From Candidatus Nanogingivalaceae bacterium (GTDB taxonomy: Bacteria; Patescibacteriota; Saccharimonadia; Saccharimonadales; Saccharimonadaceae), in contig CP072208.2 of NCBI GenBank assembly GCA_015257795.3, positions 210,001 to 242,000 of the forward strand: 32,000 nucleotides of DNA. The letters run 5' to 3'. A program made the translations under genes and the position numbers. The number at the start of each line of letters is the position of its first letter. Position 1 is the first letter of the stretch. The notes beneath the pieces are model-generated. The model saw only the letters and a list, made by a program, of their open reading frames with translations. It ran no database searches and had not been told where the DNA came from. This document shows positions 1-32,000 of the stretch, in pieces.

Positions 1-771
1 GGTGTTATTATCATTGCAGTGTTGTTGGTTGTAGCTGGTTTTCAAAAGGATCTTGGGACAGCGACTACGATTATTATTGCGATAGCTTTTCAGTTTGTTG
101 TTGCTGGCATGAAGTCAGATAAGCTTGTTCCCGTGGGTTTGGTGATTCTAGCTGGAGTTGTTTTATTGATTGTTTTTGAACCACACCGAATTTCGCGTAT
201 TTTAACATTTTCGAAAGGCGATTGCAGTAATATCTTAACGGAAAGTGGAAAAGATCAATATCATATCTGTAATGCTAAGCTTGCAATTGGTTCAGGTGGA
301 ATTTTAGGCTTAGGAATTGGAAATTCAGTTCAGTCTGCAGGATATTTACCTGAAACCATTAATGACTCAATTTTTGCGGTGATGGGTGAGATGTTTGGTT
401 TTGTAGGGCTGTTTGGAATATTAGCAATTTATTTTGGGCTAATATATCAACTTCTTAAAGTTATTTCAAGAATGGAAAACCCTGCAAGTAGACTTTTTGT
501 CGCTGGGGTTACTGGGTGGATAACTTCACAAACAGTAATTAATGTGGCGGCGATGGTTGGACTTTTCCCACTAAAAGGAATCACAATTCCATTAATTTCT
601 TACGGAGGAACAAGTCTGGTTGTGATCTTGGGCGTTCTCGGAATCGTTTTCAATATTTCAAATTACACATCGTTTAAGCAAGTTGAAGATTTTAAGGAGG
701 AAAGCTATGAAAATACTAGCAATCGGCGGCGGGTCGGGCGGTCACGTGGTGCCCGTAGTAGCAGTTTTTAA
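1..771 (+). CDS. ftsW: SEDS-family cell-division protein FtsW/RodA, C-terminal part (5' end lies outside the window)
   Basis: The frame is open from base 1. It is a polytopic membrane protein with SEDS-like C-terminal blocks (GSGGILGLGIGNS..., PLISYGGTSLV). It sits directly upstream of murG, as in dcw clusters. The last ~65 nt overlap murG. Confidence 0.8.
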   Translation, partial: GVIIIAVLLVVAGFQKDLGTATTIIIAIAFQFVVAGMKSDKLVPVGLVILAGVVLLIVFEPHRISRILTFSKGDCSNILTESGKDQYHICNAKLAIGSGGILGLGIGNSVQSAGYLPETINDSIFAVMGEMFGFVGLFGILAIYFGLIYQLLKVISRMENPASRLFVAGVTGWITSQTVINVAAMVGLFPLKGITIPLISYGGTSLVVILGVLGIVFNISNYTSFKQVEDFKEESYENTSNRRRVGRSRGARSSSF

Positions 772-1864
772 AGAGATATTAAAGAAAAAACCTGATACTG
801 AGTTGTATTTTTGGTGCGATAAAAAATTTGCACCACAAGCTACAAAAATTATGCAGCAGTCTTTTGGTGAGCAAGTTAGTGTTTCGAAAATTTCAAGTGG
901 TAAATTTCGTAGATATAATCATCTAAGTTTTTGGCAACATTTAACGGTTCCGAGTGTTGTATTTGGTAATTTTATTGATATCTTTAAGAATATTGCAGGT
1001 ATTTTTCAGGCTTTTACAAAATTAGTCGTTAACCGTCCAGATGTTATTTTTTGTAAAGGTGGGTTTGTTTGTGTTCCAGCCGGATTGGCGGCGTGGGCGC
1101 TGAGAATTCCAATTGTTATTCATGATTCTGATGCGCACCCTGGTTTGGCAAATCGCATAATTTCAAGATTTGCTAAAAAAATTGCAACAGGTGCACCATT
1201 GGAGTTCTATAATTATCCTATTGAGAAAACTGAATATGTGGGTATTCCGGTTCTAGATAAATTTAAGAAGTATAGTAAAAGTGAACGACAACAGTTTAAA
1301 AAAGAGCTTGGATTTTTAAGTGAAAAGCCACTAGTTTTAGTAACGGGCGGCGGTCTTGGTGCTGCTCGATTAAATAATGCTGTGGTTTATGAAGGCACTA
1401 AGCTTTCAAGAAAAGCTCAAATTATTTTAATATCGGGCGTTGCTCAATTTGAAGAGCTTCAAAAAGAAATTGAAGGATTTCCTGAGGATTTTCATCTTCT
1501 AAGTTTTGTCTCAAAAGATATGTGGAAATTTCTAGCTGCTGCGGATTTAGTCGTTGCTAGAGCCGGGGCAACGTCTAATCTTGAGCTTGCATCATTACAT
1601 AAACCTACAATTTTAGTTCCTAATGCAAGATTGACTGGTGGTCATCAGCTAAAAAATGCTCAGGTGTATGAAAAGTCTGGTGCGGTTGAAGTTGTTTCAG
1701 ACGATCTAATAGAAGAAAATCCTGAAATTCTTTCAAATAAAATTATTCGAATATTAGATGATCCAAACAGGATGAATAAATTGGGTGAAGAATTTGGTAA
1801 TTTTGCTAAACCGAATGCGGCAAAAGATGTTGCGAAATTAATTTTTGAATCAATAGATATGTAA
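707..1864 (+). CDS. murG: UDP-N-acetylglucosamine--N-acetylmuramyl-(pentapeptide) pyrophosphoryl-undecaprenol GlcNAc transferase MurG
   Basis: N-terminal glycine loop MKILAIGGGSGGHVVP. C-terminal GT28 blocks (VTGGGLGA, ARAGATSNLELA, HQLKNA). AGGAGG at 694-699 favours the ATG at 707 over the ATG at 683. Confidence 0.9.
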   Translation: MKILAIGGGSGGHVVPVVAVFKEILKKKPDTELYFWCDKKFAPQATKIMQQSFGEQVSVSKISSGKFRRYNHLSFWQHLTVPSVVFGNFIDIFKNIAGIFQAFTKLVVNRPDVIFCKGGFVCVPAGLAAWALRIPIVIHDSDAHPGLANRIISRFAKKIATGAPLEFYNYPIEKTEYVGIPVLDKFKKYSKSERQQFKKELGFLSEKPLVLVTGGGLGAARLNNAVVYEGTKLSRKAQIILISGVAQFEELQKEIEGFPEDFHLLSFVSKDMWKFLAAADLVVARAGATSNLELASLHKPTILVPNARLTGGHQLKNAQVYEKSGAVEVVSDDLIEENPEILSNKIIRILDDPNRMNKLGEEFGNFAKPNAAKDVAKLIFESIDM

Positions 1865-1896
1865 AAAACATCAAGCTTATGGTATAATTTAAAGAG

Positions 1897-2772
1897 ATGA
1901 AAGAAGCGGAAAACTTAACGCGTCGAGAAAAACGCGAGCAAATTCTAAAAAAGCACTCCGAAGAGAAGGGTGTTTTTCGCCGCGGTGTAACTATTTCTAA
2001 CAGGGAATGGAATAAATCTGAAAGAACACAAGAGCATAAATTAATTGTGCGCCGACGAAAACTAAGTGTATTTTTTATAAGTATTACAGCTGTTTCAATT
2101 TTAATGGTTGTATTTTTACTCCAGTTTGTATCTAGGGTTTCAGTTACCGCTAAGAGTATTTCAAACAATAATTTAGAAAAATACAAAACCTCGATAGAAG
2201 AATATTTTTCGGCAAACCCTAGCGAGAGATTTATGCCAAATCTAAATAAAAAAGCATTAATTTCGAAGGTTCAGAATGATAATCCTGAAATCCTGGATAT
2301 TTCTAATATAAACTTGAATGGTATTACTTCTTATAATTTTGAATTAAGTTTTCGAAAACCAGTTGCTTCATGGAATGCTGAAGGGAAGGAATTATTTGTT
2401 GATTCTGAAGGTGCTTCTTTTTCTACGACCCTTTTTGATAAGCCTGCATTAGCAATTGTCGATGATAGTGGTTTGACAGCATCAAACGGTAAAAATGTTG
2501 CAAGTGGTAGTTTCTTTAGTTTTGTTGGAAAGCTAGTTGCTGCAGCTAATAATAACGGTTTAGAGATTACTAAAATTCGTATTCCTCCCGCTAGCTTAAG
2601 GCAGGTCGAGGTATCTGTGAATGGTGTGAAATATTATGCTAAAATGTCTACATCTGAGTCGGCCGAGGGGCAAATGGCTAACTTTAAAACAGCGATCAAT
2701 TATTTTGCGACGCATAAGGTTTCACCTAGTTATGTAGATTTAAGAATTGAAGGAAAAGGATATTATAAATAG
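1897..2772 (+). CDS. FtsQ/DivIB-like bitopic cell-division protein (assigned by context and architecture)
   Basis: Basic cytoplasmic N-terminus, a single TM segment (VFFISITAVSILMVVFLLQFV) and a ~200-aa external domain. It lies immediately after murG. Confidence 0.45.
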   Translation: MKEAENLTRREKREQILKKHSEEKGVFRRGVTISNREWNKSERTQEHKLIVRRRKLSVFFISITAVSILMVVFLLQFVSRVSVTAKSISNNNLEKYKTSIEEYFSANPSERFMPNLNKKALISKVQNDNPEILDISNINLNGITSYNFELSFRKPVASWNAEGKELFVDSEGASFSTTLFDKPALAIVDDSGLTASNGKNVASGSFFSFVGKLVAAANNNGLEITKIRIPPASLRQVEVSVNGVKYYAKMSTSESAEGQMANFKTAINYFATHKVSPSYVDLRIEGKGYYK

Positions 2773-2808
2773 ATATTTTTCGAAAAGATTAAAAAAGGGG
2801 AATATATA

Positions 2809-2826
2809 TTTTGTTCGCTTTTTGTT
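2809..2826. repeat. Inverted copy of the 18-mer AACAAAAAGCGAACAAAA (present here as TTTTGTTCGCTTTTTGTT)
   Basis: It is the exact reverse complement of 3701-3718 and 9135-9152. It lies 37 nt after the ftsQ-like stop codon. Confidence 0.85.
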
Positions 2827-3349
2827 CTATTTGATTAGTTAGAATATAAATAAAAGAGAAGTCTATAAAAAACTATATTATTATATAAAATAATAAAAAG
2901 TCAAATTTGTCAAATAATAGCAAAGCAGGGGGTTAAAACAATAATTTAATAAGCTATAAAAATGATATTTTATCGGTAAATAATCTAAAGTTTTATAAAA
3001 TATCAATAAAGATATTAAACCACGGCAATAAGCAATTTATCCCATATAATAAAAAAAGATACATGTATTAATTCTCTTTTTTATTTTTTGAAATTTTAAT
3101 GCTGGAGATTTGGTAACGAAAATCACAGATAAAAATCTTACGTTAAGAAAAAAGGTATATTAATCTATTAAATTATTAAAAGTAATACATTGTCTGTAGA
3201 GATATAAGAATGTAAAATAATAATTTGAAGATTATGTAAATATATAAATACATAAATACAAATATGGATTAAGTGTTATGATGTATGATGAATACTTAGT
3301 TATCTTATAGTACCTAAGTATTTGTCGTAAAAGATATATTGTGCGACAC

Positions 3350-3377
3350 TTGACATAATTTCTTTATTTGATAAAAT
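3350..3377 (+). promoter_or_regulatory. Sigma70-like promoter for the 78-aa gene (TTGACA-16 nt-TAAAAT)
   Basis: TTGACA at 3350-3355 and TAAAAT at 3372-3377. It lies immediately downstream of the 21-mer box. Confidence 0.5.
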
Positions 3378-3424
3378 GATCATGTAATATAAAATAATTT
3401 TAAATTTAATTAAGGAAAAATTAC

Positions 3425-3661
3425 ATGAATAAAGAAAATTTACTAAACGAAGATAATATTATTTCAGCACTTTCCCGTTTGTCTATTAAAACTCAAGAAT
3501 CGCCAAAAACTGGCAATGTCTATACTACTATAACTTTGCATTTTAAAAATGGTCTTGAAATCCGTTATTTTGTAGATCCTAAAGATAAATTTGGTCTTAA
3601 AGATGCTATTTCTCGAATTTCGCAATCTGAAAAACTAGACAATATCCTAAACGAGGACTAA
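3425..3661 (+). CDS. Hypothetical 78-aa protein with an acidic C-terminal tail, paralog of 8862..9095. It may be a phage ssDNA-binding protein or a regulator, but the function is unproven.
   Basis: A complete ORF with an AAGGA-type RBS. It aligns along its full length with the 77-aa ORF at 8862 (shared NxDNIIS...F KNGLEI.YFVD.KDKFGL.DA...ISQSEKLDNILNED). Confidence 0.6.
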   Translation: MNKENLLNEDNIISALSRLSIKTQESPKTGNVYTTITLHFKNGLEIRYFVDPKDKFGLKDAISRISQSEKLDNILNED

Positions 3662-3748
3662 CAGCTTATGTGAAATTTAAACCGTTAGCCCAAAATCGCA
3701 AACAAAAAGCGAACAAAAAAATAATATCAACGTAAAAAAGGAGTTAAA

Positions 3749-3925
3749 ATGCTTGAGCAACTAGGAGCAATCAACTTCCCTGAAAATTTGAACACTCAAA
3801 TTATCACTGGAATTGAGAGCGCATTCTCAAACGGTTTGACTTTCGTTGCGCCTATTCTTGTAGGTATGGTAGGTATTACTATCGTGCGAAAGGTTATCAA
3901 CCGCGGTAAAAGCGGTCGGGTTTAA
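3749..3925 (+). CDS. Candidate major coat protein (58 aa; g8p-like architecture)
   Basis: My own translation is MLEQLGAINFPENLNTQIITGIESAFSNGLTFVAPILVGMVGITIVRKVINRGKSGRV. It has a polar N-terminus, one hydrophobic helix and a basic DNA-facing C-terminus. AAGGAG RBS at 3738-3743. It is too short to appear in the ORF track. Confidence 0.55.
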   Translation: MLEQLGAINFPENLNTQIITGIESAFSNGLTFVAPILVGMVGITIVRKVINRGKSGRV

Positions 3926-4162
3926 TCCCCTGCTTTCTCCCAATCCTGAGTATGATTTAAAACTACTCATCTATAATATAAATTTAACAATTAAATTAGC
4001 TTAAATTATAACTTAAATTGAAATAAAAGTGATTAGTACTTTATTAGGTTCATTTTTATTTTTTACAAATCCACATCTAGTATAAAAACATCGAAAAAAT
4101 AGTTTTTTATAATCACTTTTTTATATTTTAAACTTAAGCTTATTTAATTAAAGGTAAAAATA

Positions 4163-4318
4163 ATGGTTCAAAACGTATCATCAAATGAAGTTATCGGTAT
4201 AATTTTAGACCTATTTTCTAAAGGTTTTGTTTTTCTATTACCTATCATTGGAGTATTGGCAGGAATTCACCTTTTATATTCAATGATAATGAACGTGCTA
4301 TTTAGAGATAGACTATAG
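4163..4318 (+). CDS. Small single-TM coat-like protein (51 aa), apparent paralog of 3749..3925
   Basis: Translation is MVQNVSSNEVIGIILDLFSKGFVFLLPIIGVLAGIHLLYSMIMNVLFRDRL. It shares the core pattern I..FS.G..F..PI.....GI with the 58-aa protein. The RBS is weak (AAAGG). Confidence 0.45.
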   Translation: MVQNVSSNEVIGIILDLFSKGFVFLLPIIGVLAGIHLLYSMIMNVLFRDRL

Positions 4319-4326
4319 GAGAAAAT

Positions 4327-4464
4327 ATGCAAGATATATATTATTACACCCCTTTGCATAATAAATTTGTAAAATTCGATGATATAACTTGGCTCATTAT
4401 CATAATGCTTACGATTCTAGCATTATATTTTATTAAAAACATGAAAGTTCGCCCTAAAAGGTAG
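4327..4464 (+). CDS. Small single-TM protein (45 aa), candidate minor coat protein (g7p/g9p-like size class)
   Basis: Translation is MQDIYYYTPLHNKFVKFDDITWLIIIMLTILALYFIKNMKVRPKR. AGGAG lies 5-6 nt upstream of the ATG. It is tightly packed, with its stop 3 nt before the next ATG. Confidence 0.45.
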   Translation: MQDIYYYTPLHNKFVKFDDITWLIIIMLTILALYFIKNMKVRPKR

Positions 4465-4467
4465 AGT

Positions 4468-5721
4468 ATGAACAAATGGAAAATTTACTTTTTATTATTT
4501 GGCTTTGCATTATGCTGTGGTTTATTTGGGATTCTAAGCAAAAACGCGTTCGCCGTTGAAAGTTATAAAATATCACCCGCGCAAGACAGAGATTTTAAGA
4601 GAGCTTATTATCGGCAAGTATATATAGAGCAAGATACACCTATAAATTTACATTATTATTTTTATGCGCCCGATAAATATTCAGAAAAAATAAAACTTAT
4701 TTCTTTTATTTGTGAAGATCCTTACAATAATTATACAACTATTGATGGTTGCGGCCTGTATATGGTACAAGAAGCGGGAAGTTTTAAAATTAAGTTGAAA
4801 GCATCTGGTTATACACAAACTGATTATAGTCGCGAAACACAAGAGTCTGACCCACCATATGTTAATAAAGTATATAATTTCAGCAAACCTTTTGAAATAG
4901 CAAGTTATACAGATCAAGATTTTAAAAACGGGCTTACCCTTTTGGGTGGTACAGCGCTGAAAGAAAATAGCTGGAATTTAAATGAAGGTGGTTTTTTAGT
5001 CGAGCCGATAGGTGGAAAAACCGATAGTTCAAATAGTAACAGCGGAAATAATAGCGGTGGTGGATTTGGCGATTTCTTCGCTGGCATTCGTGATTTTATT
5101 AGAGACTTCTTTCAGCCCATGATTGATTCGATTACGCGAACTCAAAAGGTCGTTTTGGGTATAACAGACAATATTATAAAAGGAATCAGCGACTTTTTCG
5201 CGCCTATGATCCAATCTATTGGAAATATGCTTAAAGCTATCATTGATTTGCCAAAACTTATTCTAGATGGTATAAAATCAATATTTGATGGTTTAATTAA
5301 CGCTGTTACTACTTTGTTTGTCCCCGCTGAAGGTCAGATAGACACTGAAATGTCTAATTTAAAATCTATGTTTAATTTCGACAAGATAACCTCCATCTTA
5401 AATGCTACATTTTTACCACTTGAAAAATCAGGTTTTCGTTATGATTTAAATTGTAATAATCAATATTGGGACAGTGCTAGTGATTATTTAAATGAGAACA
5501 TCTATGATAAGGGAACAAATACCATCATGGAAAAGATGCACGGTAAAGCGTGGCGCATGAGCTTATCTATTTGTAAAGTGCCACCTATTTATATAACAAT
5601 AGCGCGCACGTTGTTGATATTCGCGTTTGTTTGGTGGTCAGCTTACAGATTATTTGAATTTGTACCTATTCTTATGGGTTCAGCGTTCATATGGGACAGA
5701 TGGAAGAAGAAAGAAGAGTAA
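4468..5721 (+). CDS. g3p-like adsorption/minor coat protein (417 aa)
   Basis: Cleavable signal peptide (…SKNAFA|VE), an N-terminal globular part, a Gly/Ser/Asn-rich linker (GGKTDSSNSNSGNNSGGGFG), a helical region with duplicated DFFxPMIxSI motifs and a C-terminal TM anchor (LLIFAFVWWSAYRLFEFVPILMG). It sits between the coat genes and the g6p/Zot-like genes. Confidence 0.55.
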   Translation: MNKWKIYFLLFGFALCCGLFGILSKNAFAVESYKISPAQDRDFKRAYYRQVYIEQDTPINLHYYFYAPDKYSEKIKLISFICEDPYNNYTTIDGCGLYMVQEAGSFKIKLKASGYTQTDYSRETQESDPPYVNKVYNFSKPFEIASYTDQDFKNGLTLLGGTALKENSWNLNEGGFLVEPIGGKTDSSNSNSGNNSGGGFGDFFAGIRDFIRDFFQPMIDSITRTQKVVLGITDNIIKGISDFFAPMIQSIGNMLKAIIDLPKLILDGIKSIFDGLINAVTTLFVPAEGQIDTEMSNLKSMFNFDKITSILNATFLPLEKSGFRYDLNCNNQYWDSASDYLNENIYDKGTNTIMEKMHGKAWRMSLSICKVPPIYITIARTLLIFAFVWWSAYRLFEFVPILMGSAFIWDRWKKKEE

Positions 5722-5725
5722 AAAT

Positions 5726-6019
5726 ATGATAGTTATATTATTGATGAAATTAATACAAGTTGCGCTATTTCCACTTTCGGCGTTGGTTAAAACTGTCGAT
5801 TCGGCGATAGCCCCCCTTATAAGCGCTTTACCATCATTGCGCCCAGTTGTCGCGTTTATTCAATGGCCTTTAGAGATGTTAGCTTATTTGTTAGGTTCAA
5901 GAGAATTGATGGTCTTTATGTTTACATTTACAGCTGTATTGTTGCCCGTTGAATTAGCAATTTCGTTTATATGGTGGGTGATTTACAAACTTCCCGCTTT
6001 AAGCGTAAAAAACAAATAA
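5726..6019 (+). CDS. g6p-like small polytopic membrane protein (97 aa)
   Basis: I take the internal ATG at 5726, just after the previous stop, rather than the track start at 5627, which overlaps the g3p-like gene. It has about 3 hydrophobic segments and lies directly before the Zot-like gene. Confidence 0.5.
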   Translation: MIVILLMKLIQVALFPLSALVKTVDSAIAPLISALPSLRPVVAFIQWPLEMLAYLLGSRELMVFMFTFTAVLLPVELAISFIWWVIYKLPALSVKNK

Positions 6020-6028
6020 AGGAGTGAA

Positions 6029-6793
6029 ATGTCTTACTTATCATTTATTAAAAAAGAAACAAAACCGCATATCGATTCAATCAAACAAAACTATATAGAT
6101 TCAAAAGATAAAGAGCTATTTCGTGCTAGTGGTCTAACTGTCTATTGCGGTTGGCAAGGCTCAGGCAAAACGCTTTCAGCCGTAAAACACGTTTATAATC
6201 TTATGGTTCGCTACCCTAAATCAATTTTAGTTACGAATTTGGAGTTTAACAGTGATTTACCGAACAAAATTATAACTTTTAGAAATCATGATGATCTACA
6301 TCGTTTATTAGTTGAAATCAATAACGATAAATACGGCGTTATCTACTTAATAGATGAAATACATACGTATTTTAATGCTTTGGAGTCTAAAGATATACCG
6401 CCCTATATTTTTACCGAAATTTCACAACAACGCAAGCAACGTAAAGCTATTATAGGTACTTCTCAGCTATTCTTACGTATGGCCAAACCATTTAGAGAGC
6501 AAGCGAATTATTTAGTTATGTGTTCCACTTACGGAAATATATTCACCGTAAACAAAGTTTATGATGCACACAAACTAACAACAGATTATAGCGGTGCTTT
6601 AATTGGTCATTCAGTAAAAACGGGCTTTTTCTTTCATTCTGAAAAGTTAAGAAATATGTACGATACCTTACAAAAAGTAGTGTCAGGAAAGGCAGAATTT
6701 GAAGATTTTCAGGTAATCAATTTAGAGCAGAAAAAAAAAGAAAGGCTTTCGTGCGTCCGCAAGTCGATGACGCGCGCACGAAAGCCTCGATAA
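6029..6793 (+). CDS. Zot/pI-family P-loop NTPase (filamentous-phage assembly ATPase)
   Basis: Walker A GWQGSGKT and Walker B-like VIYLIDEIH. The size and position are typical of inovirus gene I/zot. GGAG RBS. I see no C-terminal TM segment, so it would be a short form. Confidence 0.65.
   Translation: MSYLSFIKKETKPHIDSIKQNYIDSKDKELFRASGLTVYCGWQGSGKTLSAVKHVYNLMVRYPKSILVTNLEFNSDLPNKIITFRNHDDLHRLLVEINNDKYGVIYLIDEIHTYFNALESKDIPPYIFTEISQQRKQRKAIIGTSQLFLRMAKPFREQANYLVMCSTYGNIFTVNKVYDAHKLTTDYSGALIGHSVKTGFFFHSEKLRNMYDTLQKVVSGKAEFEDFQVINLEQKKKERLSCVRKSMTRARKPR
6743..6787 (+). other. Perfect 13-bp GC-rich inverted repeat (AGGCTTTCGTGCG ... CGCACGAAAGCCT) with a 19-nt loop
   Basis: Read directly from the sequence. 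It lies in the last 50 nt of the Zot-like ORF, within otherwise AT-rich DNA. Confidence 0.8.
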
Positions 6794-6817
6794 TAACCAT
6801 TATTTAAAGGAGAAATT

Positions 6818-7084
6818 ATGTTATACGAACTAAAAATTACACGTAAATTTCAATATACGTTATATCACAACCGCACCCCTATTGCACATTATAAGACTAA
6901 AAAAGATGCGAAAACTGCCCTTTTAGTCATTAAACAACGCTTTGAACTTCTCGATAAATTACAAAAAGCTATGAAAATACAAACAAATTCATATTGTGGA
7001 GATACTCACCTATCTGTCTATCAATACTGCCCTGATTTTGAGATAAAACACTATTTTAAAATCGAACGTGAACAAATTGCTTAA
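6818..7084 (+). CDS. Hypothetical 88-aa phage protein
   Basis: A complete ORF with a GGAG RBS, co-oriented between the Zot-like gene and Rep. I recognise no motif. Confidence 0.6.
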   Translation: MLYELKITRKFQYTLYHNRTPIAHYKTKKDAKTALLVIKQRFELLDKLQKAMKIQTNSYCGDTHLSVYQYCPDFEIKHYFKIEREQIA

Positions 7085-7085
7085 T

Positions 7086-7131
7086 TGTGGCGGGGCGTTG
7101 CCCCTTGGGGCAACCCTTGTCAAGAGCCACA
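7086..7131 (+). other. Nested GC-rich hairpin in the intergenic region upstream of rep (outer TGTGGC/GCCACA, inner GTTGCCCC/GGGGCAAC)
   Basis: Read directly from the sequence. It is the most GC-rich stretch of the island and is non-coding. Confidence 0.75.
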
Positions 7132-7165
7132 CTTAACACACAAAACGCTAATTTAAGGAGAAAGT

Positions 7166-17905: not shown

Positions 17906-17908
17906 GGT

Positions 17909-20946: not shown

Positions 20947-21027
20947 AGCCCACTTCCTTAATGTAAATAGTTTAACATAATCACTTTCAAAAATCAATAA
21001 AAAAGCGAGTATTCAACTCGCTCTGTT

Positions 21028-21912: not shown

Positions 21913-22048
21913 TTTTCCACCTCCTGAGTGATTTTTTCTTTCGAAAATCGAATAGATTTTGTAATTATATCATATTTTTAGCTAAAAAGCAAGCAAAAGA
22001 ATCTAAAATAAAAACCGCCTTTTTGATAAAAGCGATTTTTTAAAAAAA

Positions 22049-22174
22049 TTATTTTGCGGCCAAAGCTGCTGCGATTCGTTCGCGGCGTTTTGCTTCGCGG
22101 CGTTTTTCGATTTTTAGTTTTGCACGCAAAGCTCGTTTGCGGTCTGCTCCGTGCCAACTTTTATGTTTAGCCAT
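22049..22174 (-). CDS. Unlisted 41-aa highly basic protein (MAKHKSWHGADRKRALRAKLKIEKRREAKRRERIAAALAAK)
   Basis: My own translation. An AAAGGA RBS lies 5-6 nt upstream. It sits in an otherwise empty 340-nt gap. Confidence 0.4.
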   Translation of the reverse strand: MAKHKSWHGADRKRALRAKLKIEKRREAKRRERIAAALAAK

Positions 22175-22250
22175 CTATTTCCTTTCGTTAAAAAATAAAA
22201 CAATTCTAAATAATTATAGCATACTTGTTCGAGAATTTCAAACTCTCAGA

Positions 22251-22925: not shown

Positions 22926-22948
22926 TTTTTGCCTCTAAATATATTTAG

Positions 22949-22977
22949 ATTGTAGCATATTTTTATACATTTGTCAA
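22949..22977 (-). promoter_or_regulatory. Near-consensus promoter TTGACA-17 nt-(TGc)TACAAT on the - strand
   Basis: On the + strand, TGTCAA is at 22972-22977 and ATTGTA at 22949-22954. Confidence 0.6.
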
Positions 22978-22990
22978 TAAGGTGACAATG

Positions 22991-23773: not shown

Positions 23774-23790
23774 TTTATCCTTTCGAAAAG

Positions 23791-23820
23791 TTGAAACCTC
23801 AGCGTTGAGCCGAGGTTCTT
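23791..23820 (-). terminator. Probable terminator after metG (GAACCTC-loop-GAGGTTT, then a T-rich tract)
   Basis: The hairpin was read on the - strand downstream of the stop at 23824. The T-run is interrupted. Confidence 0.4.
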
Positions 23821-23823
23821 TGG

Positions 23824-25347: not shown

Positions 25348-25408
25348 ACTGCTTATAATTATATCATATAATAGCAGCGAACACAAAAAAGATTGAGCTA
25401 GAAAAGAC

Positions 25409-26284
25409 TTATCGGTTGAAAAATAATTTCGAAATTTTTAGCCAATCATTAATTTTTAAATCTTGTGCGCGTAGATCTGGCGAAATTTCACAAGCTTCTA
25501 AAATTTCAGCAGATTTTTCTTTCGAAATTGCAAGATTAGCGCTCAAGCTTTTCGAAATTTTTTTACGTTTTGCTGCAAAACCAGCTTTAACAATTCGAAA
25601 GAATTCTTTTTCAGAAACTTGACAGTTGTTTTCGAGGTTAAATTTTTCAATTAGATTTTGTTCCCTAGCCTTTAAAATAACCACTTGAGAATCAACTTTT
25701 GGCGGTGGTGTAAAAAACTCTCGTTCAACAATTTGGCCAAGCTCGGCATTTGCATAAATCTGTGAGGCGATCGCTAAAATACTTAAATCTCCAGGTTTTG
25801 CGCAAATTCGCTCAGCTACTTCTTTTTGGACTAAAAGCGCAGCAACACTTGGTTTATTATCGCTTGTAAGTAGTTTTTCGATAATTTTTGAAGTGATGTA
25901 ATATGGCACGTTTGCGGCAACTTTATATTTTTTCGGTAGTTTTGAAAGATCAAAATCTAAAAAATCCGCATTTTGAACGGTAAGATTCTTGCCTGGAAAT
26001 TGTGCTGGTAGTTTTTTTGCCAAGTTTTCATCAAACTCGATTGAAAGAACCTCACCCGTATCGCCAGCATACCTTAAGAGCGAAGATGTTAGTGTTCCAA
26101 GGCCTGGGCCAATTTCAAGCACGAAATCGCCGTTTTTAATTTCGGCTTCTTCAGCGATTCCATCCAAAATAAATCTATCGCGCAACCAATGTTGCCCGAG
26201 GGATTTATTATTTTTTAAATTTGAATTTTCTCTTTTTTTGGATTTTTTTTGACTAGATTTCTGATTAAAGCTAAGCTTTACCAC
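25409..26284 (-). CDS. rsmA: 16S rRNA (adenine1518/1519-N6)-dimethyltransferase RsmA/KsgA (start uncertain)
   Basis: LGQHWL followed by VLEIGPGLGTLT (SAM motif) and NVPYYITS. A GTG at 26284 overlaps the upstream stop (GTGGTAA). The track ATG at 26401 would overlap the upstream gene by 124 nt. Confidence 0.8.
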   Translation of the reverse strand: MVKLSFNQKSSQKKSKKRENSNLKNNKSLGQHWLRDRFILDGIAEEAEIKNGDFVLEIGPGLGTLTSSLLRYAGDTGEVLSIEFDENLAKKLPAQFPGKNLTVQNADFLDFDLSKLPKKYKVAANVPYYITSKIIEKLLTSDNKPSVAALLVQKEVAERICAKPGDLSILAIASQIYANAELGQIVEREFFTPPPKVDSQVVILKAREQNLIEKFNLENNCQVSEKEFFRIVKAGFAAKRKKISKSLSANLAISKEKSAEILEACEISPDLRAQDLKINDWLKISKLFFNR

Positions 26285-27480
26285 GAATGACTCGCTTTCC
26301 AGTGTGCATATGCTGCTGCCCATGAGCCGTAACGGCTTGTTGCGTAAATTGATGCTGAACGGAGCTGACAAATGGGGTCGCTTAAAGTTGAGCCTGAGCA
26401 ACCATGTCTGTTTAAGTTAGAAATAGAGGTTTGGTATAGACCGTAATATTGTCCATTTCGAGCAGTTGGTCGCCAAGTTGATTCTTTAGTGATAATATAG
26501 TCAACATATCCGTAATCGCTAGCAGAAATTCCAGCCGCGCTCATCCAATCTGTGTGTGATCCGGCAGGGAGGCTAGTTTTTGTTCCAACAATCACCACTT
26601 GTTTTTTAGCAGCCTTAATTTCAGTTTCATTGATTTTTTTGCGTGAGATTTCTTTACCATTCTGCATTTCAACTTCATAAGTTACGCTCTTGGTGCCTTT
26701 TTCGCCAGCTTCTTTGATTTCTTTATAGCCAGAATCTTTATTAGCGTCTTGAATTGTTTCAGTTTGGAAATCTGTTGGTTCTTCAACGGTCAAAGTTTGC
26801 TTACCGTTTCGCCAAATTCGAAAATTCAATCCATTCGCAATTTGAGTTTTTAGGTCAATCGAAATACCATCGTCTTTTCCAAGAACGATTTTCTTTTCTT
26901 TCAAGAAATCCTCAACAGTTTTGGCTTGCGTTCGAAAACTTTCGGTTTTTCCAAATAAGTCGACAGAAATTTCTTTAGCACGAGTAATTTTTAATGTATT
27001 TATTGAGCCATCTTCAAGAATGTTTCCTGATTCCTCAAAAGCAAGCTTATCTTCATTATGAACGTTTAAGTCAGCTTTTTCGGCGATTTGGCGAGGGGTT
27101 TGCGCTGCGGTTAGAATTTTTGTTTTTAGCTCGCCGTCTTCAATGACTACCGGTTTTGCGCGGTAAATATTAATGCTGTATTCAGCGCCGGTTAATTCTT
27201 CATCAAGCCCCGGCTCGACACTGTCTTCTTTTGAGAAATTAATTTTTTGTGCTTTAAGCGCTTCTCGAACAGTTTTTGCATTAGTTTTGAATGAAGTTTT
27301 TTGGCCACTTTCAAAAACAGTTAAAATTTTGTTTCCCTGACCTGTAGCTTTTGCAGAATTTTTACCCGCAACTGCAAAAATATTTAATAGAAGCAAAAAT
27401 CCAAGCGAAGCAAACCCCGCAATTAGAAGTTGTTTTTTATAAAAATAAATAGGTTGTAAAACTCGCATTATTAATAGCAA
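26278..27480 (-). CDS. DUF348-repeat/G5-domain cell-wall hydrolase (RpfB/YabE-like architecture)
   Basis: N-terminal TM segment. Three similar ~50-aa repeats (TVREALKAQKINFSKED..., TPRQIAEKADLNVHNED..., TVEDFLKEKKIVLGKDD...). A G5-like segment. A C-terminal transglycosylase-like block (ITKESTWRPTARNGQYYGLYQ). Confidence 0.65.
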   Translation of the reverse strand: MLLIMRVLQPIYFYKKQLLIAGFASLGFLLLLNIFAVAGKNSAKATGQGNKILTVFESGQKTSFKTNAKTVREALKAQKINFSKEDSVEPGLDEELTGAEYSINIYRAKPVVIEDGELKTKILTAAQTPRQIAEKADLNVHNEDKLAFEESGNILEDGSINTLKITRAKEISVDLFGKTESFRTQAKTVEDFLKEKKIVLGKDDGISIDLKTQIANGLNFRIWRNGKQTLTVEEPTDFQTETIQDANKDSGYKEIKEAGEKGTKSVTYEVEMQNGKEISRKKINETEIKAAKKQVVIVGTKTSLPAGSHTDWMSAAGISASDYGYVDYIITKESTWRPTARNGQYYGLYQTSISNLNRHGCSGSTLSDPICQLRSASIYATSRYGSWAAAYAHWKASHSW

Positions 27481-27512
27481 TTATAGCAAATAAAATTCGA
27501 AAGGTCAAATTT

Positions 27513-29660
27513 TTAGAGCTTTTCGAGGCGGGCAAATTCAGCGTTTAGTTTTCGAATTTTGCCGTTGCCAAACTCAATTTCAACCGCCAATCCATCGATA
27601 TCTTTAACGATACCGGCACCAAAAGCGGGGCTTTTCACACGATCGCCAATTTGCAAGCCGCATTCATCAGAATAAAAATCATCAAATTCCTCAAAACTAA
27701 CCTCTTGGCTATAATCTTCTTCTTCTTTCGAAAAATCATTCCAGCCGCCAAAATTCTTTTTTGGTAGCTCTAGCTCGGCATCAGTAATAAAACGGCTCGG
27801 ACTAGAATAATTTCGTTGACCAAAAACAGCTCGCGATTCAGCATAGCTCAAAATTAACTCTTCTCGTGCGCGCGTCATTCCCACATAGCAAAGTCGGCGT
27901 TCTTCTTCTAAATCATCTTCACCAGTGTCAAAAACTCGGCTGTGCGGAAAAATCCCTTCTTCCATTCCCGCCAAAAATACCACCGGGAACTCCAAACCTT
28001 TTGCGGCGTGCAAAGTCATTAAATTCACTTCATCGCCACTTTTTGCATCAGCTGAACTCATCAGTGCGGCATCTTCCAAAAAGCTTGCCAAATCTGCGTA
28101 ATTTTTTGCTTCACTTACTAAGGTTGAAAGATATTCACTTCGTTCAGTTGCTTCGTTTTCAGTTAATTTTTCATTTTTACCGTAATTTGTTCGTTCTAAA
28201 ATTCTCTCAATAATTTCGCTCGGGTTTGATGAATTTTCGCTTAAAATTTGGCATTCGCGAAAAATCTCGCCCAGATTTACTAATGAATTTCGTGCGCGTG
28301 AAGTTAAGGTTGAAAGTTCTCCAGCTTGAAGTAAGCTCGAAATCAAATCCAAACTATTCGAACTTTGCCAGTTCAAGAATTTCGAAAGGCTCACTGCACC
28401 CAAACCGCGCGCTGGCACATTCACAATTCGCTCAAAAGCCACGCGGTCGAGTGGATTATAAATCACTCGCAAATAAGCCAAAATATCTTTAATTTCTTTG
28501 CGGTCATAAAAGCGTGTTCCACCAAAAATTTTATACGGAATTTGATACCGAATCATTGCTTTTTCAAAGTTATAGCTTTGCGCGTTTGTGCGATAAAGAA
28601 TTGCGAAATCGCTAAATTTTCGTGCACCAACAGTTTTAAAACTGAAAATCTGGCCTGCAATTTTCGCCGCTTCTTCGCTTTCATCGCGCGCACTTTGCAC
28701 TAAAACGGGTTCGCCTTTACCGAGTTCGGTAAAGAGTTTTTTATCGGTTCGGTTGTGGTTTTTCGAAATCACGTTGTGTGCGGCGTTCAAAATATTCTCA
28801 GTTGAACGATAATTTTGCTCCAGTTTTATTACTTTTGCACCCTTGTAATCTCTTTCGAAATTCAAAATATTCGTAAAATCTGCACCACGCCAAGAATAAA
28901 TGCTCTGCCAGTCATCACCAACCACGCAAATATTTCGCTCGGCGTTCACGATCATTTTTATAATCGCATATTGTGCCGCGTTCGTATCCTGATACTCGTC
29001 AATCAAAATATGATTAAATTTATTTTGCCAAAATTCGCGAATTTCTTTATTTTGCTGAAGTAATTTTACTGTTTCGAAAAGCAAATCATCAAAATCTAGC
29101 GCATTCGCTTTGTTTCGTTCTTTTTCGTAGCGCAAAAAAATCTCAGAAACTTTTTGCTCAAAACCCCAGTTTGCGCCGTTTGCAAATTCTTCTGCCGTTA
29201 AAAGCTGATTTTTTGCATTCGAAATTGCGCTTGAAACACTTTGCGGTTTCAAACTTTTTTCGTCAATTTGTAATTCTTTCATGATTTTTTTAATCAAGCT
29301 TCGTCGGTCGTCCTCATCATAAATCACAAAATTTGGCGCCACGCCAATCGCTTCACCTTTAAGTCGCAAAATCTTCACGCAAATTCCGTGAAAAGTTCCC
29401 ATCCAAGGCATAAAAAATCGGTCGTTCGCGTCGCGGTTAAGCAAATCCGCCAAACGTTCACGCATTTCTCGCGCGGCTTTGTTGGTGAAAGTCACCGCTA
29501 AAATCGTTTCGCTCGCTACGCCGTGCGCAATTAAATTCGCAATTCGGTGCGTTAAAGTTTTGGTTTTACCGCTTCCCGCGCCCGCCAAAATTAGCATTGG
29601 CCCACTTAAAGTTTCCACCGCCTCTTTTTGATTTTTATTTAAGCCTTTCGTAATATCCAT
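27513..29660 (-). CDS. pcrA: ATP-dependent DNA helicase PcrA/UvrD (SF1)
   Basis: AGAGSGKTKT (motif I), DEYQDTN (motif II), YRS and TLHAAKGLEFP blocks, VGMTRA, and a C-terminal Tudor-like tail. Confidence 0.9.
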   Translation of the reverse strand: MDITKGLNKNQKEAVETLSGPMLILAGAGSGKTKTLTHRIANLIAHGVASETILAVTFTNKAAREMRERLADLLNRDANDRFFMPWMGTFHGICVKILRLKGEAIGVAPNFVIYDEDDRRSLIKKIMKELQIDEKSLKPQSVSSAISNAKNQLLTAEEFANGANWGFEQKVSEIFLRYEKERNKANALDFDDLLFETVKLLQQNKEIREFWQNKFNHILIDEYQDTNAAQYAIIKMIVNAERNICVVGDDWQSIYSWRGADFTNILNFERDYKGAKVIKLEQNYRSTENILNAAHNVISKNHNRTDKKLFTELGKGEPVLVQSARDESEEAAKIAGQIFSFKTVGARKFSDFAILYRTNAQSYNFEKAMIRYQIPYKIFGGTRFYDRKEIKDILAYLRVIYNPLDRVAFERIVNVPARGLGAVSLSKFLNWQSSNSLDLISSLLQAGELSTLTSRARNSLVNLGEIFRECQILSENSSNPSEIIERILERTNYGKNEKLTENEATERSEYLSTLVSEAKNYADLASFLEDAALMSSADAKSGDEVNLMTLHAAKGLEFPVVFLAGMEEGIFPHSRVFDTGEDDLEEERRLCYVGMTRAREELILSYAESRAVFGQRNYSSPSRFITDAELELPKKNFGGWNDFSKEEEDYSQEVSFEEFDDFYSDECGLQIGDRVKSPAFGAGIVKDIDGLAVEIEFGNGKIRKLNAEFARLEKL

Positions 29661-29667
29661 ACTTTCG

Positions 29668-29676
29668 ATTATAGCA
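29668..29676 (-). promoter_or_regulatory. Extended -10 TGCTATAAT, 7 nt before the pcrA ATG (leaderless-type)
   Basis: The + strand reads ATTATAGCA at 29668-29676. The start codon is at 29660-29658. There is no SD sequence. Confidence 0.45.
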
Positions 29677-29712
29677 TAACTTATTTAGATATTTCCATTT
29701 TTTTCGAAAGTG

Positions 29713-29721
29713 TGCTAAAAT
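29713..29721 (+). promoter_or_regulatory. Extended -10 TGCTAAAAT, 6 nt before the ATG at 29728 (leaderless-type)
   Basis: Read directly from the sequence. There is no SD sequence. Confidence 0.45.
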
Positions 29722-29727
29722 ATTTTT

Positions 29728-30216
29728 ATGGAAAATCACGCTTATTCTGATAAAAATCTTGAAGAATTCTTGCAAAAACATTTTGGTGTTAGCTTTGGGA
29801 TTGAAGAAGTTATTTCGCGCAATCTTCCGGTTGGTTATTCGGCCGAGGCTACCATTTTTAAAAGCAAAAAAGGTCGCGTCTATGCGTTTATTTCAGTTGA
29901 AGCGCGTGCAACTTTGGGTGATATTCAATATATTCTTTCGAAAATGAACTTAAAACCAGCCTATTTCTTTCCACCAAGTGGTTTCGAAAACTATTTTTTT
30001 GAGCGTGCAAAAGTTCAATTTTTAGAGGTTTTTCCCGGTCGGCACGACGTTAAAGATTCTGAGCTTCGTTATTACAAAAAACGCGTTTCTTATAACCCCG
30101 CTCTTGTTGAAATTGCTGAAATCCGCGATGGCGAGATTCGTTGTTTTAATTCCGATTCAATCGGTTCTTGGCGCACAGCGCAACGATATTCGTATAAAAA
30201 AATTTTAATGCAATAA
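29728..30216 (+). CDS. Hypothetical protein (162 aa)
   Basis: A complete ORF divergent from pcrA. I recognise no motif. Confidence 0.65.
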   Translation: MENHAYSDKNLEEFLQKHFGVSFGIEEVISRNLPVGYSAEATIFKSKKGRVYAFISVEARATLGDIQYILSKMNLKPAYFFPPSGFENYFFERAKVQFLEVFPGRHDVKDSELRYYKKRVSYNPALVEIAEIRDGEIRCFNSDSIGSWRTAQRYSYKKILMQ

Positions 30217-30264
30217 TTTTTTAGATATAAACCACCAAATTCTTAAAAAATTCTTAAAAAAGCC

Positions 30265-30293
30265 TTGCAAAATGATTGTGCTTGTGCTTTAAT
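30265..30293 (+). promoter_or_regulatory. Pilin promoter TTGCAA-17 nt-(TGc)TTTAAT, preceded by a tandem A-tract repeat (ATTCTTAAAAA x2)
   Basis: The hexamers and spacing were read directly. Confidence 0.5.
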
Positions 30294-30362
30294 GGTTGCA
30301 TACGGACAGACCGTAAATAAAAATACTAATAATAATTGTTCATTAGAAAGGTGGAATTTCAT

Positions 30363-30845
30363 ATGAACCTAATCAACAAAAACAATAAAAAAGGTTTCAC
30401 AATCATCGAAGTTGTGCTTGTGCTTGCCATTGCAGGTCTTATCTTCTTGATGGTGTTCTTGGCATTGCCAGCATTGCAACGATCACAACGTGATACACAA
30501 CGAAAGAACGACGCTTCACGCTTGCGCGCAGCCGTAACAGACTATAGCTCAAACAACCGAGGAGCATTGCCTTGGACTGCTGCAGGAGATATCGCAGATG
30601 ATTCAGCATTCCTAAAAAACTATGTTTTGAAAGGATCGAGCTTCAATGACCCTTCAACAAATGCTCAATACAAGGTTAAAGCAAAGGATACTAATAATAC
30701 AGCATCAATGAGTGACACTGCTATTGGAACTATGTATGTAGCTGCAAAGGCTGCTTGTGATAGTGACGGTGCTATAAAAGCTGGTAACTCAATCGTTGTA
30801 TCAGTTAAAACTGAAAGCGGTGTTGCTAACTGCGTAGAAGGATAA
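30363..30845 (+). CDS. Type IV pilin (prepilin with class III signal peptide)
   Basis: MNLINKNNKKG|FTIIEVVLVLAIAGLIF carries the G/F cleavage site and Glu+5. Two C-terminal Cys residues could form a disulfide loop. The RBS AAAGGTGG favours 30363 over 30336. Confidence 0.85.
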   Translation: MNLINKNNKKGFTIIEVVLVLAIAGLIFLMVFLALPALQRSQRDTQRKNDASRLRAAVTDYSSNNRGALPWTAAGDIADDSAFLKNYVLKGSSFNDPSTNAQYKVKAKDTNNTASMSDTAIGTMYVAAKAACDSDGAIKAGNSIVVSVKTESGVANCVEG

Positions 30846-30870
30846 TCAAATCTTTCTAAACCAATCAATA

Positions 30871-30902
30871 AAAATAACTCTCGTGATGAGAGTTATTTTT
30901 TT
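30871..30902. terminator. Strong bidirectional rho-independent terminator (AATAACTCTC-GTGAT-GAGAGTTATT, A-run upstream, T-run downstream)
   Basis: A perfect 10-bp stem lying between the convergent pilin and DUF421 genes. Confidence 0.8.
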
Positions 30903-30912
30903 AGTTTCGTTT

Positions 30913-31545
30913 TTATTTATAGGTAGTTAGCTTTAGTTTTTTATCTACATATTCACCTAGGAATACATCGCTATACTTGTCTACTCCTTGTTTTTTAAGC
31001 TCAGCAAGAAGCCATTTTTCATCTTTTCCGATCAATTTAAGAATATCATTTTGTAGTTGACCATCTGTAATGATAGGAAATTTTGGATTTTCTTCACCAG
31101 AGTGAATTATAATTAGCTGTCCATCTTGTTCAACAATAGCTCTTTTTATTCCGTCTGACGAAAAAATACCGTTAGTTCGTAATTTAAAAGCCACATCGTG
31201 AGCAGATAAACCTGCTTTTTTGCAGTTTTCGATGTTTATCTTACCTTCATTAATAATGGTTAAGGCTTTGCCATCTATTAGTTGTTTGGCGGTTACATTA
31301 TTTTTCTTTATCCATTTTAGAGATAGTACAAGGGCGCACCAAATACATAAAATAGCAACAAATTCGAGAATCGTGATGTTATTATTATAGATTACTCCTC
31401 CGATTATTCCACCGAGAACATAATTTATAATCTGGTCGCTAGCCGATGATGGCGCTAGGTTGCCTTTTCCTGTTATATTTATAATTAGCGTCAATGCTAG
31501 AAAGCCAATTATTAGTTTAATGGTTAATAGTAAAAACAAGTCCAT
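30913..31545 (-). CDS. DUF421 (YetF-like) membrane protein
   Basis: The N-terminal TM pair includes ITGKGNLAPSSASDQIINYVLGGIIG. The C-terminal soluble domain is typical of YetF-type proteins. Confidence 0.65.
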   Translation of the reverse strand: MDLFLLLTIKLIIGFLALTLIINITGKGNLAPSSASDQIINYVLGGIIGGVIYNNNITILEFVAILCIWCALVLSLKWIKKNNVTAKQLIDGKALTIINEGKINIENCKKAGLSAHDVAFKLRTNGIFSSDGIKRAIVEQDGQLIIIHSGEENPKFPIITDGQLQNDILKLIGKDEKWLLAELKKQGVDKYSDVFLGEYVDKKLKLTTYK

Positions 31546-31581
31546 TTTTTTCCTCTCTTTATTAGCTGTAGGTCTATTATA

Positions 31582-32000
31582 TTATTTTTTGAGCTTTAAT
31601 ACGATCAGGTTTTCAATGTGCGGTGTTCGTGGAAAAAAGTTATATCCACGCGCATAAGTTATCTCGTATTTTTTGCTCAAAATTGCCACGTCACGCGCTT
31701 GTGTGGTTGGGTTGCAACTTAGGTAAATTACTTTTTCTGGCTCAATTTCGAGAATTTTCTCACAAACTTCGCGATTCATTCCGGCTCTTGGTGGGTCAAC
31801 AATTAGGTTTGAACCTTTTTTGATAAACTCCAGCGCTTTTTCGCTTGGCGCCAAGATAGCTTTTGCGGTTTCTTCCCTATTTAGCTTTTTGATATTTTTT
31901 TGCATTTCATCCACTGCAAATTCATTGATTTCCACTAGGGTTAAATCGCCCGCGCCAATCGTAAGTCCAATTGAACCCACACCAGAATATAAGTCAACCG
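31582..32000 (-). CDS. TrmA/RlmD-family RNA (uracil-5)-methyltransferase, C-terminal part (5' end lies outside the window)
   Basis: VDPPRAGM (SAM-MTase motif IV), the catalytic-Cys block VIYLSCNPTTQARD and the C-terminal FPRTPHIE. The frame stays open to the window end. Confidence 0.8.
   Translation of the reverse strand, partial: VDLYSGVGSIGLTIGAGDLTLVEINEFAVDEMQKNIKKLNREETAKAILAPSEKALEFIKKGSNLIVDPPRAGMNREVCEKILEIEPEKVIYLSCNPTTQARDVAILSKKYEITYARGYNFFPRTPHIENLIVLKLKK

Follow-up and report, generated by a model that had tools for sequence, protein, structure and literature searches.

Short palindromes that recur about once per gene, in non-coding DNA and in all frames of coding DNA, have been described in cyanobacteria as the highly iterated palindrome HIP1 (GCGATCGC) and the alternate HIPs. 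These words exceed the expectation from Markov background and codon usage, are conserved between genomes above control words, are lineage-specific, being replaced or absent in some relatives, and have as their core a palindrome of the type recognized by methyltransferases or restriction-modification (R-M) systems; the organisms that carry them are naturally transformable (PMC4390886, PMC5861425, 10.1101/2024.09.10.611283). A cognate, often orphan, DNA methyltransferase accompanies the abundant palindrome in HIP1 systems (Elhai 2015, PMC4390886), and HIP1 raises natural transformation up to ~7-fold when unmethylated and more than 100-fold when methylated (10.1101/2024.09.10.611283), and has been proposed as an uptake sequence (10.64898/2026.06.24.733823). 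The uptake signal sequences (USS) of Pasteurellaceae and the DNA uptake sequences (DUS) of Neisseriaceae, each present in about a thousand or more copies, lie within genes in peptide-tolerant frames, form clade-specific 'dialects' and are depleted in prophages and islands, so that they mark native DNA (PMC7371117, PMC2397512). Here we describe the hexamer TTCGAA, with the preferred form TTTCGAAA, in a 32,000-nucleotide stretch of a Candidatus Nanogingivalaceae genome (contig CP072208.2, forward-strand positions 210,001 to 242,000; hereafter the window, numbered 1-32000), and find in it a highly iterated palindrome that is specific to one lineage, a single clade within the G6 Saccharibacteria.

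In the window we count 66 TTCGAA sites, six at 210-2784 and 60 at 10391-29988, with none at 2785-10390. An earlier sequence-only reading of this DNA had called the word massively over-represented in host DNA on a count of about 65 sites against a base-composition estimate of about 8, and held that such enrichment needs a special explanation; our figures bear this out. Over the 25.6-kb host part used for expected counts, base composition (M0) predicts 8.5 sites and Markov models of order 1 to 4 (M1 to M4) predict 20.7, 28, 34 and 56, M4 being the maximal order and already containing two enriched pentamers. One hundred dinucleotide-preserving shuffles gave a mean of 24.8 +/- 5.0 sites with a maximum of 41, and 1000 rounds of synonymous-codon shuffling of the host genes, with proteins and codon usage kept, gave 19.0 +/- 3.9 with a maximum of 33, against 59 sites observed in coding sequence. 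The reading had proposed a Markov test of its claim, and M3, at 34, remains well under 66, so that pure oligonucleotide bias does not reproduce the count. By z-score TTCGAA is the top hexamer against both M1 and M2; against M3 (z 5.1) it stands just behind its own sub-words TTTCGA/TCGAAA (5.4). It is the 10th commonest hexamer overall and exceeds all other NNCGNN words 4-fold (66 versus 15.5). We conclude that the excess is a genuine, DNA-level phenomenon.

The enrichment extends softly to eight bases. The octamer TTTCGAAA accounts for 34 of the 66 sites, with 5.25 expected under M2 and ~6 under M3; the form that had earlier been called frequent, TTTTCGAAAA, is found at only 5 of the 66. In the host part the excess over M2 is thus 2.3-fold for the hexamer (66 versus 28) and 6.5-fold for the octamer, the latter reaching 41-fold only against base composition. 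A T precedes 64-70% of sites, compared to 39-43% of controls, and no signal is found past position -2. Spacing between sites is Poisson-like over the short range that loci of up to 32 kb afford (coefficient of variation 0.75-1.18).

Within the host genes of the window, the word bends codon choice. Serine is encoded by TCG in 48% of T_AA contexts versus 11% elsewhere, and arginine by CGA in 81% of TT_A contexts versus 27% elsewhere. The third frame, Phe-Glu (TTC GAA), has no excess in the window (7 of 33). When eight related species are pooled with the window, 51% of Phe-Glu pairs are written TTCGAA versus ~20% expected. All three frames are therefore affected in the clade, with the window's own species an exception, and an early impression of a Phe-Glu frame without any enrichment, an argument against a DNA-level force if true, failed in the relatives and held true for the window species. 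At several Phe-Glu positions, the window species has TTTGAA where most relatives have TTCGAA (window and loci L001 and L003 versus L010-L044). Non-coding DNA is the most affected: 21.4 kb of pooled intergenic sequence (GC 30%) holds 78 sites, versus 7 expected from composition, 13 from M1 and 19 from M2. Several intergenic sites, including those at 13699 and 23782 of the window and others in the pooled set, overlap, in the form TTTCGAAAGGA, the ribosome-binding region of the gene that follows, and the words CTTTCGAA/TTCGAAAG occur 12 times versus 2.2 expected.

Three other candidates were considered and rejected. A longer repeat or mobile element as the carrier of TTCGAA is not supported, as there is no conservation or composition signal more than 1-2 nt beyond the word on either side; regular or clustered spacing is not found, the coefficient of variation being ~1; and a nanopore assembly artefact at a methylated motif does not account for the sites, given that same-species Illumina metagenome assemblies, 99.5-99.99% identical, have the same counts.

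TTCGAA is also conserved as a word. Compared to seven species 80-90% identical in DNA sequence, the window's sites are retained at 68-88% in six and at 53% in the seventh (L010), with an all-hexamer mean of 32-57%; in six of these comparisons TTCGAA stands between first and third among 47-110 hexamers. Identity is raised only at offsets -1 to +6 (0.85-0.97, with a flanking mean of 0.85), and because it is confined to the octamer, a local mutational cold spot is not the cause. Synonymous positions within the word are protected: the G that ends TCG is kept in 85% of cases versus 53-64% in other NCG codons, the third-position A of CGA in 109/109 versus 87% where CGA is followed by A without a preceding TT and 60% in other contexts, the A of GAA after TTC in 32/32 versus 89%, and the T of xTT before CGA-A in 95% versus 85%. 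These counts pool non-independent relatives, and P-values drawn from them are indicative only. Between-species differences at sites are mostly TTCGAA <-> TTTGAA/TTCAAA, and some sites at conserved arginine codons derive from CGG, CGC or AGA. Site turnover also includes non-synonymous K/E, Q/R, L/S, A/S and T/F changes, so the DNA-level pressure reaches protein sequence. TTCGAA is thus kept by a DNA-level force on the word as a whole, which bends codon choice and sometimes amino acids.

The Der GTPase encoded in the window is identical, residue for residue, to that on CP076102.2, the complete 691,584-bp chromosome of strain JB003, a member of Saccharibacteria (TM7) clade G6, 'Candidatus Nanogingivalaceae', from human saliva (PMC8386444); the nearest named relative is Ca. 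Nanogingivalis gingivitcus. Metagenomes hold hundreds of strains of the species, and each window protein looked up occurs on contigs from 85-117 index blocks. The sequences analysed here are those of the der and pheT neighbourhoods together with ~50 kb of the focal genome, and the survey across species comprises the der loci of 80 GTDB species; the relatives are not phylogenetically independent, and gene models of related loci are simple longest open reading frame (ORF) calls. The 10 kb past each end of the window have 2.35-2.40 sites/kb (2.4 in the right flank, L087 1-10000). The pheT loci of G6 relatives from metagenomes, which share no sequence with the window region and one of which comes from the same assembly as an enriched-clade der locus, have 2.0-3.2 sites/kb and an observed/expected ratio (O/E) under M1 of 3-4. 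Native-chromosome density is therefore ~2.4-3.3/kb, or one site per 350-400 bp in the regions sampled, and extrapolating from these regions we infer ~1,700-1,800 hexamers in the 692-kb genome.

Across species the enrichment is sharply bounded. The comparison with related genomes that the sequence-only reading had called for gave 874 sites in 300 kb for 17 species representatives of the window clade (2.9/kb, O/E under M1 3.4) and only 3 sites in 45 kb for the sister taxa L030, L031 (N. gingivitcus) and L032. Two further lineages (L026 and L028, GC 41-43%) have 3.7-4.2 sites/kb, and L029 and L022/L024 are weak, at 0.9-2.0. The 51 other Saccharibacteria loci average 0.22 sites/kb (O/E 0.67), several with none. 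Among window-clade loci, TTCGAA tops the hexamer list everywhere but in L013, where it is second; it ranks second to third in L026/L028 and is unlisted in L022/L024/L029. At conserved Der residues (IRT, LRT, FSN, VSK and SSK), the enriched species use TTCGAA and the sister species use synonymous alternatives. The enrichment is thus lineage-specific, found in ~20 related species of G6 (Nanogingivalaceae) and not in sister taxa or other Saccharibacteria. Some der loci of other Saccharibacteria have their own modestly over-represented 6-bp palindromes, namely TCATGA (L035, L052, L059 and L077; 13 versus 3.4 expected in L035), GGCGCC (L045 and L072), GAGCTC (L076) and CTTAAG (L042), which may be further lineage-specific iterated palindromes.

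Within the window, the sites are distributed over native and foreign DNA as follows (strand is given where assigned; gene names are from Pfam where indicated).

1-2784: native chromosome segment with 6 TTCGAA (1.3-2.3 sites/kb), containing the 3' part of ftsW, murG and a gene of 291 amino acids (Pfam FTSW_RODA_SPOVE, Glyco_transf_28)
210, 883, 1746, 2262, 2351, 2779: TTCGAA site starts in this left native segment
2785-10390: TTCGAA-free stretch of 7.6 kb, half-words present and full sites 0, GC 0.20-0.31
2785-3402: low-GC intergenic DNA inside the TTCGAA-free stretch
3403-3702, plus strand: left direct repeat of 300 nt, with an ORF of 78 amino acids at 3425-3661; repeat spacing 5434
3703-9136, plus strand: inovirus-like integrated element of ~5434 bp with 0 TTCGAA, defined by Pfam, by the empty site in strains L003-L005, L090 and L092, and by alignment break points
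4468-5721: island ORF of 417 amino acids
6029-6793: island Zot-like ATPase (Pfam), followed by an ORF of 88 amino acids
7166-8086: island Rep ORF2/G2P (Pfam)
8167-8670: island DUF2726 (Pfam)
8837-9136, plus strand: right direct repeat of 300 nt, with an ORF of 77 amino acids at 8862-9095; 77% identical to the left copy
9322-9717: ORF of 131 amino acids inside the TTCGAA-free stretch
9720-10886, minus strand: DUF3048 gene, of which the 3' ~60% (9720-10390) lies inside the TTCGAA-free stretch
10391-29988: native chromosome segment with 60 TTCGAA (3.1/kb), sites in and between housekeeping genes, per-gene density 0-6.8/kb; genes (Pfam) DUF3048, Exo_endo_phos, smpB, pth, der, MATE-like, pseudouridine synthase, response regulator, histidine kinase, GNAT, tatD, metG, ksgA, G5/DUF348 and pcrA/uvrD
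13699, 15231, 21940, 23782, 27496, 29703: intergenic TTCGAA starts in this segment
29728-30216, plus strand: ORF of 162 amino acids, its 3' end (29989-30216) in the site-free terminal 2 kb
29989-32000: terminal 2 kb with 0 TTCGAA; density rises again past the window end
30336-30845: pilin-like gene with N_methyl motif, in the site-free terminal 2 kb
30913-31545: DUF421 gene, in the site-free terminal 2 kb, followed by an ORF of 132 amino acids

Beyond the island, the window has the housekeeping genes ftsW, murG, smpB, pth, der, metG, ksgA, tatD and pcrA, a two-component pair and the pilin-like gene (Pfam). The histidine kinase gene of that pair (18934-20997) contains 21 tandem copies of TTGTGG at 19381-19506 on the minus strand (CCACAA on the coding strand), which encode (Pro-Gln)x21 in the C-terminal tail of the PAS/HisKA/HATPase protein; because the gene spans 634-650 amino acids across strains, the tract appears length-variable.

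The Zot-like ATPase, Rep ORF2/G2P and DUF2726 genes identify the island as an inovirus-like element. Its bounds, given earlier as 2809-9153, need revising: the insertion is ~5.4 kb long and lies between the diverged 300-nt repeats, and the TTCGAA-free stretch exceeds it in length. The empty-site strains have a single copy of the 300-nt repeat, and at its attachment region the phage appears to bring along a diverged version of a small host gene. The claims that no site lies between 2800 and 9720 and that the halves of the word are nevertheless present in the island (TTCG 22 times, CGAA 31 times) were correct, and our recount gives no host-like density there. The counts given for other sparse patches were right too, though these patches are not clearly beyond chance, given the Poisson-like spacing, and are largely membrane, hydrophobic or strain-variable genes.

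The absence of sites from this one island is significant only against host density, which predicts 16; from its own composition or the family rate 1-4 sites are expected and P(0) = 0.02-0.3. A broader comparison comes from 30 IMG/VR contigs whose proteins include relatives of the Zot-like or Rep protein of the island (49-99% identity). The 30 phage copies, at 49-97% amino-acid identity, point to a long association with the host. The pooled phage cores, 127 kb and partly redundant, have 45 sites (0.35/kb) versus 43 expected from M0, 64 from M1 and 83 from M3, an O/E of 0.5-1.0 depending on the null model, and 1-4 sites are found in each of the related copies. Host flanking DNA from these contigs has 2.7-3.1 sites/kb. 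The phage family is thus at or mildly below its own baseline, without the host enrichment and not purged of sites, and the 8-fold contrast between host and phage is robust, as befits the sharp foreign/native marker that the word had been said to be. Another low-TTCGAA patch, at 1.2 sites/kb, is an 840-amino-acid AAA_13 ATPase gene (GC 0.29) at L087:280-2802, ~7-10 kb past the right end of the window; it is strain-variable, with topA and a sigma-factor-like gene at that position in L089. We conclude that a clade-specific force that conserves the whole word acts on chromosomal DNA and not on phage DNA. Because diverse phages are always flanked by enriched host DNA, a bias on any DNA that replicates in these cells is unlikely, although this is weak evidence since the phage replicates by rolling circle.

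How does TTCGAA compare to the systems described above? With HIP1 it shares a short palindromic form with a methyltransferase- or R-M-type core, a density of about one per gene in coding and non-coding DNA, lineage specificity, and natural transformability, here demonstrated in other Saccharibacteria. Its excess over M2, its conservation above control words, the lack of a peptide or codon explanation and its presence in all frames and in non-coding DNA, with the exception of the Phe-Glu frame in the window species, are those of a HIP1-type word. It differs in belonging to another phylum (Patescibacteria, of the Candidate Phyla Radiation) and a 0.7-Mb genome, in an AT-rich word whose 6-bp core extends softly to 8 bp, and in magnitude, HIP1 being 15-300-fold over M2 (Xu 2018) versus 2.3-6.5-fold for TTCGAA. 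HIP1 itself shows a 10-90-kb periodicity; TTCGAA is likened to it on the word statistics of loci of at most 32 kb. With USS and DUS it shares a high copy number, clade specificity, a host group that has competence genes and type IV pili (and a pilin-like gene in the window), and rarity in recently acquired DNA, including the phage cores (0.35/kb) and the strain-variable AAA_13 gene (1.2/kb). Those sequences are asymmetric, 9-12 nt long and 100-1000-fold enriched, compared to a 6-8-nt palindrome enriched 3-10-fold, and TTCGAA departs from them in motif architecture. The word is also the target of the NspV/BstBI/AsuII R-M enzymes, and in other Saccharibacteria, as in Microcystis (PMC2779907), it shows the avoidance usual for such a site. 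In the window clade the sign is reversed (O/E 3.4), with no site avoidance in the host and no clear depletion in its resident phage.

What maintains the word? Our preferred answer, which we offer tentatively, is molecular drive through natural transformation, similar to HIP1 or an uptake sequence and linked to methylation. TTCGAA would be recognized by a sequence-specific DNA protein that acts as a dimer, for which a TTCGAA methyltransferase of the NspV/BstBI type is the most plausible candidate; DNA with (methylated) TTCGAA would be favoured during binding, uptake, processing or recombination in natural transformation; and alleles with the site would then spread by molecular drive through recombining chromosomal DNA, leaving DNA that does not participate, such as phages and recent arrivals, at its compositional baseline. 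We favour drive because selection would struggle to maintain ~1,800 sites of tiny effect in a genome that is both reduced and host-dependent, because natural competence has been demonstrated in other Saccharibacteria, where com genes and type IV pili are conserved (PMC10633639), and the pilus system is present in G6 genomes (PMC8386444), because HIP1, the nearest analogue, raises natural transformation, and because TTCGAA is a classical R-M or methylation palindrome. A report on a metagenomic methylome describes N6-methyladenine at TTCGAA (10.64898/2026.06.24.734251).

Several points weigh against this idea. The G6 window clade is uncultured, and the role of the word in uptake and methylation is one we infer. 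Neither the ~50 kb of the focal genome nor the related loci yielded a suitable DNA methyltransferase; when all loci were searched with ORF clustering, motif filters and Pfam for an enzyme that methylates or cuts TTCGAA, the only finds were a Type III R-M system (of the asymmetric-site type), an OLD-family ATPase and housekeeping RNA methyltransferases. Its short palindromic form sets the word apart from the known uptake sequences, which are asymmetric and span 9-12 nt, and its enrichment over M2 is modest next to that of HIP1. Its non-enrichment in phage fits direct selection for a chromosomal function as well. Finally, every relative compared has net more sites than the window's species, which also lacks a Phe-Glu-frame excess, and this suggests that the maintaining force varies or has weakened in that species.

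The Type III system lies downstream of der in some relatives (L012:12133-14085, L013:13966-16854), with a Mod of N6_N4_Mtase and EcoP15I_C domains and a Res of ResIII and endonuclease domains. TTCGAA is at host level in the L012 Mod ORF and the 3 kb downstream of it and in the L013 Res, and at 0.48/kb in the putative L013 Mod region; the system looks long resident, in L012 at least.

The strongest rival, which we nonetheless think unlikely, is direct selection, in which TTCGAA is bound or methylated for nucleoid organization, for control of replication or segregation, or for strand discrimination in methyl-directed mismatch repair, and sites are kept by purifying selection. In its mismatch-repair variant, the word would be a 6-mer analogue of Dam/GATC, for which a site is needed every few hundred bases, and the density of one per 350-400 bp is comparable to that of GATC in E. 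coli. A palindrome also suits a dimeric binding protein, the absence from phage is as expected, and the conservation of the whole octamer with sharp edges is the argument that Xu et al. 2018 made for HIP1 (PMC5861425). However, holding ~1,800 individually tiny-effect sites is population-genetically harder than drive in such a genome, the spacing is Poisson-like and not regular, closely related lineages manage on 0.05-1 sites/kb, and no candidate protein was identified in the DNA examined.

We regard biased mismatch repair as improbable. Here a Vsr-like very-short-patch (VSP) enzyme, or Elhai's methyl-directed 'ratchet', turns the T:G mismatch in TTTGAA/TTCAAA into TTCGAA, which would both generate sites and shield them from a mutational background that favours AT. 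A word excess driven by VSP repair is known for CCWGG in E. coli, to which it was reportedly attributed by Bhagwat and McClelland in 1992 and by Gelfand and Koonin in 1997. TTCGAA resembles CCWGG in being a methylase-type palindrome above expectation whose main alternative states are its CpG-transition neighbours: most between-species differences at sites are of this kind, the third-position G of TCG is preferentially kept inside the word, and TCA in T_AA context reads G in relatives twice as often as elsewhere. Elhai 2015 gives a further precedent, for HIP1 (PMC4390886). Yet T:G-specific repair cannot explain the protection of non-CpG synonymous positions, and arginine-codon sites have been made from CGG/CGC/AGA and not only by CpG transitions. 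The precursor words TTCAAA/TTTGAA are not depleted (O/E 0.94), TCA is still 33% of serine codons in T_AA context versus ~29% of window-host serine codons overall, the enrichment is larger than that of VSP-driven words, and a phage family long resident in the same cells is not enriched. A purely T:G-to-C:G repair bias is thus disfavoured.

Less probable still is that the contrast is driven by the phage, which has purged its sites in a host with an active TTCGAA restriction enzyme, as the sequence-only reading proposed in calling the gap restriction avoidance. The zero in this 5.4-kb copy and the slight deficit of the pooled cores under M1-M3 (45 versus 64-83) point that way, and TTCGAA is a classical type II site that is strongly avoided in NspV-carrying Microcystis, in which NspV sites occur once per 209 kb (PMC2779907). 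The pooled count nevertheless equals the base-composition expectation (45 versus 43), related copies carry 1-4 sites, the zero in a single copy is not compelling at P = 0.02-0.3, the 8-fold difference stems from host excess and not from phage depletion, and the DNA examined (~50 kb of the focal genome and the related loci) showed no R-M genes for TTCGAA.

Last, ordinary compositional, codon-usage or codon-pair bias, in which TTCGAA is a by-product of TT/AA and CG dinucleotides and TCG and CGA codons and which had been listed earlier as a candidate, draws on the over-representation of CpG, TT and AA (odds ratios 1.32, 1.39 and 1.39) and on the 56 sites predicted by the maximal-order M4, but is effectively refuted by the 21-34 sites of M1-M3 and 19 of codon shuffling, the confinement of TCG and CGA preference to the word context, the enrichment of all three frames in relatives, the non-coding excess (the strongest, 6-fold over M1), the zero sites in an island with the same CpG odds ratio (1.32) and the lack of excess in sister species of similar GC.

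Two whole-word mechanisms therefore remain, transformation drive and site-by-site selection, of which drive is tentatively favoured. We found no paper that links TTCGAA to Saccharibacteria, and the G6 genome paper mentions neither R-M, nor methylation, nor TTCGAA (PMC8386444). Whichever mechanism applies, TTCGAA density is a simple, strong marker of native versus foreign DNA that can help to bin and curate G6 Saccharibacteria contigs in oral and gut metagenomes, and, if the link to transformation is true, placing (methylated) TTCGAA in constructs could improve the genetic manipulation of Saccharibacteria. The purpose of iterated palindromes such as HIP1 has been in question for ~30 years with all examples so far from one phylum, and an independent case would show that they are general. 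A 0.7-Mb, presumably naturally competent, host-dependent lineage of the Candidate Phyla Radiation, with relatives that lack or under-represent TTCGAA, is a compact comparative system in which to look for a gene gained or lost with the word. It is possible, if doubtful at present, that TTCGAA is a methylated, R-M-derived tag of self DNA preferred by the competence and recombination machinery of G6, the first described in the Candidate Phyla Radiation. If so, this would be an independent replication of the HIP1 phenomenon that joins iterated palindromes, methylation and uptake sequences in one mechanism, and a former restriction site would have turned, within one family, from avoided in the sister species to accumulated.

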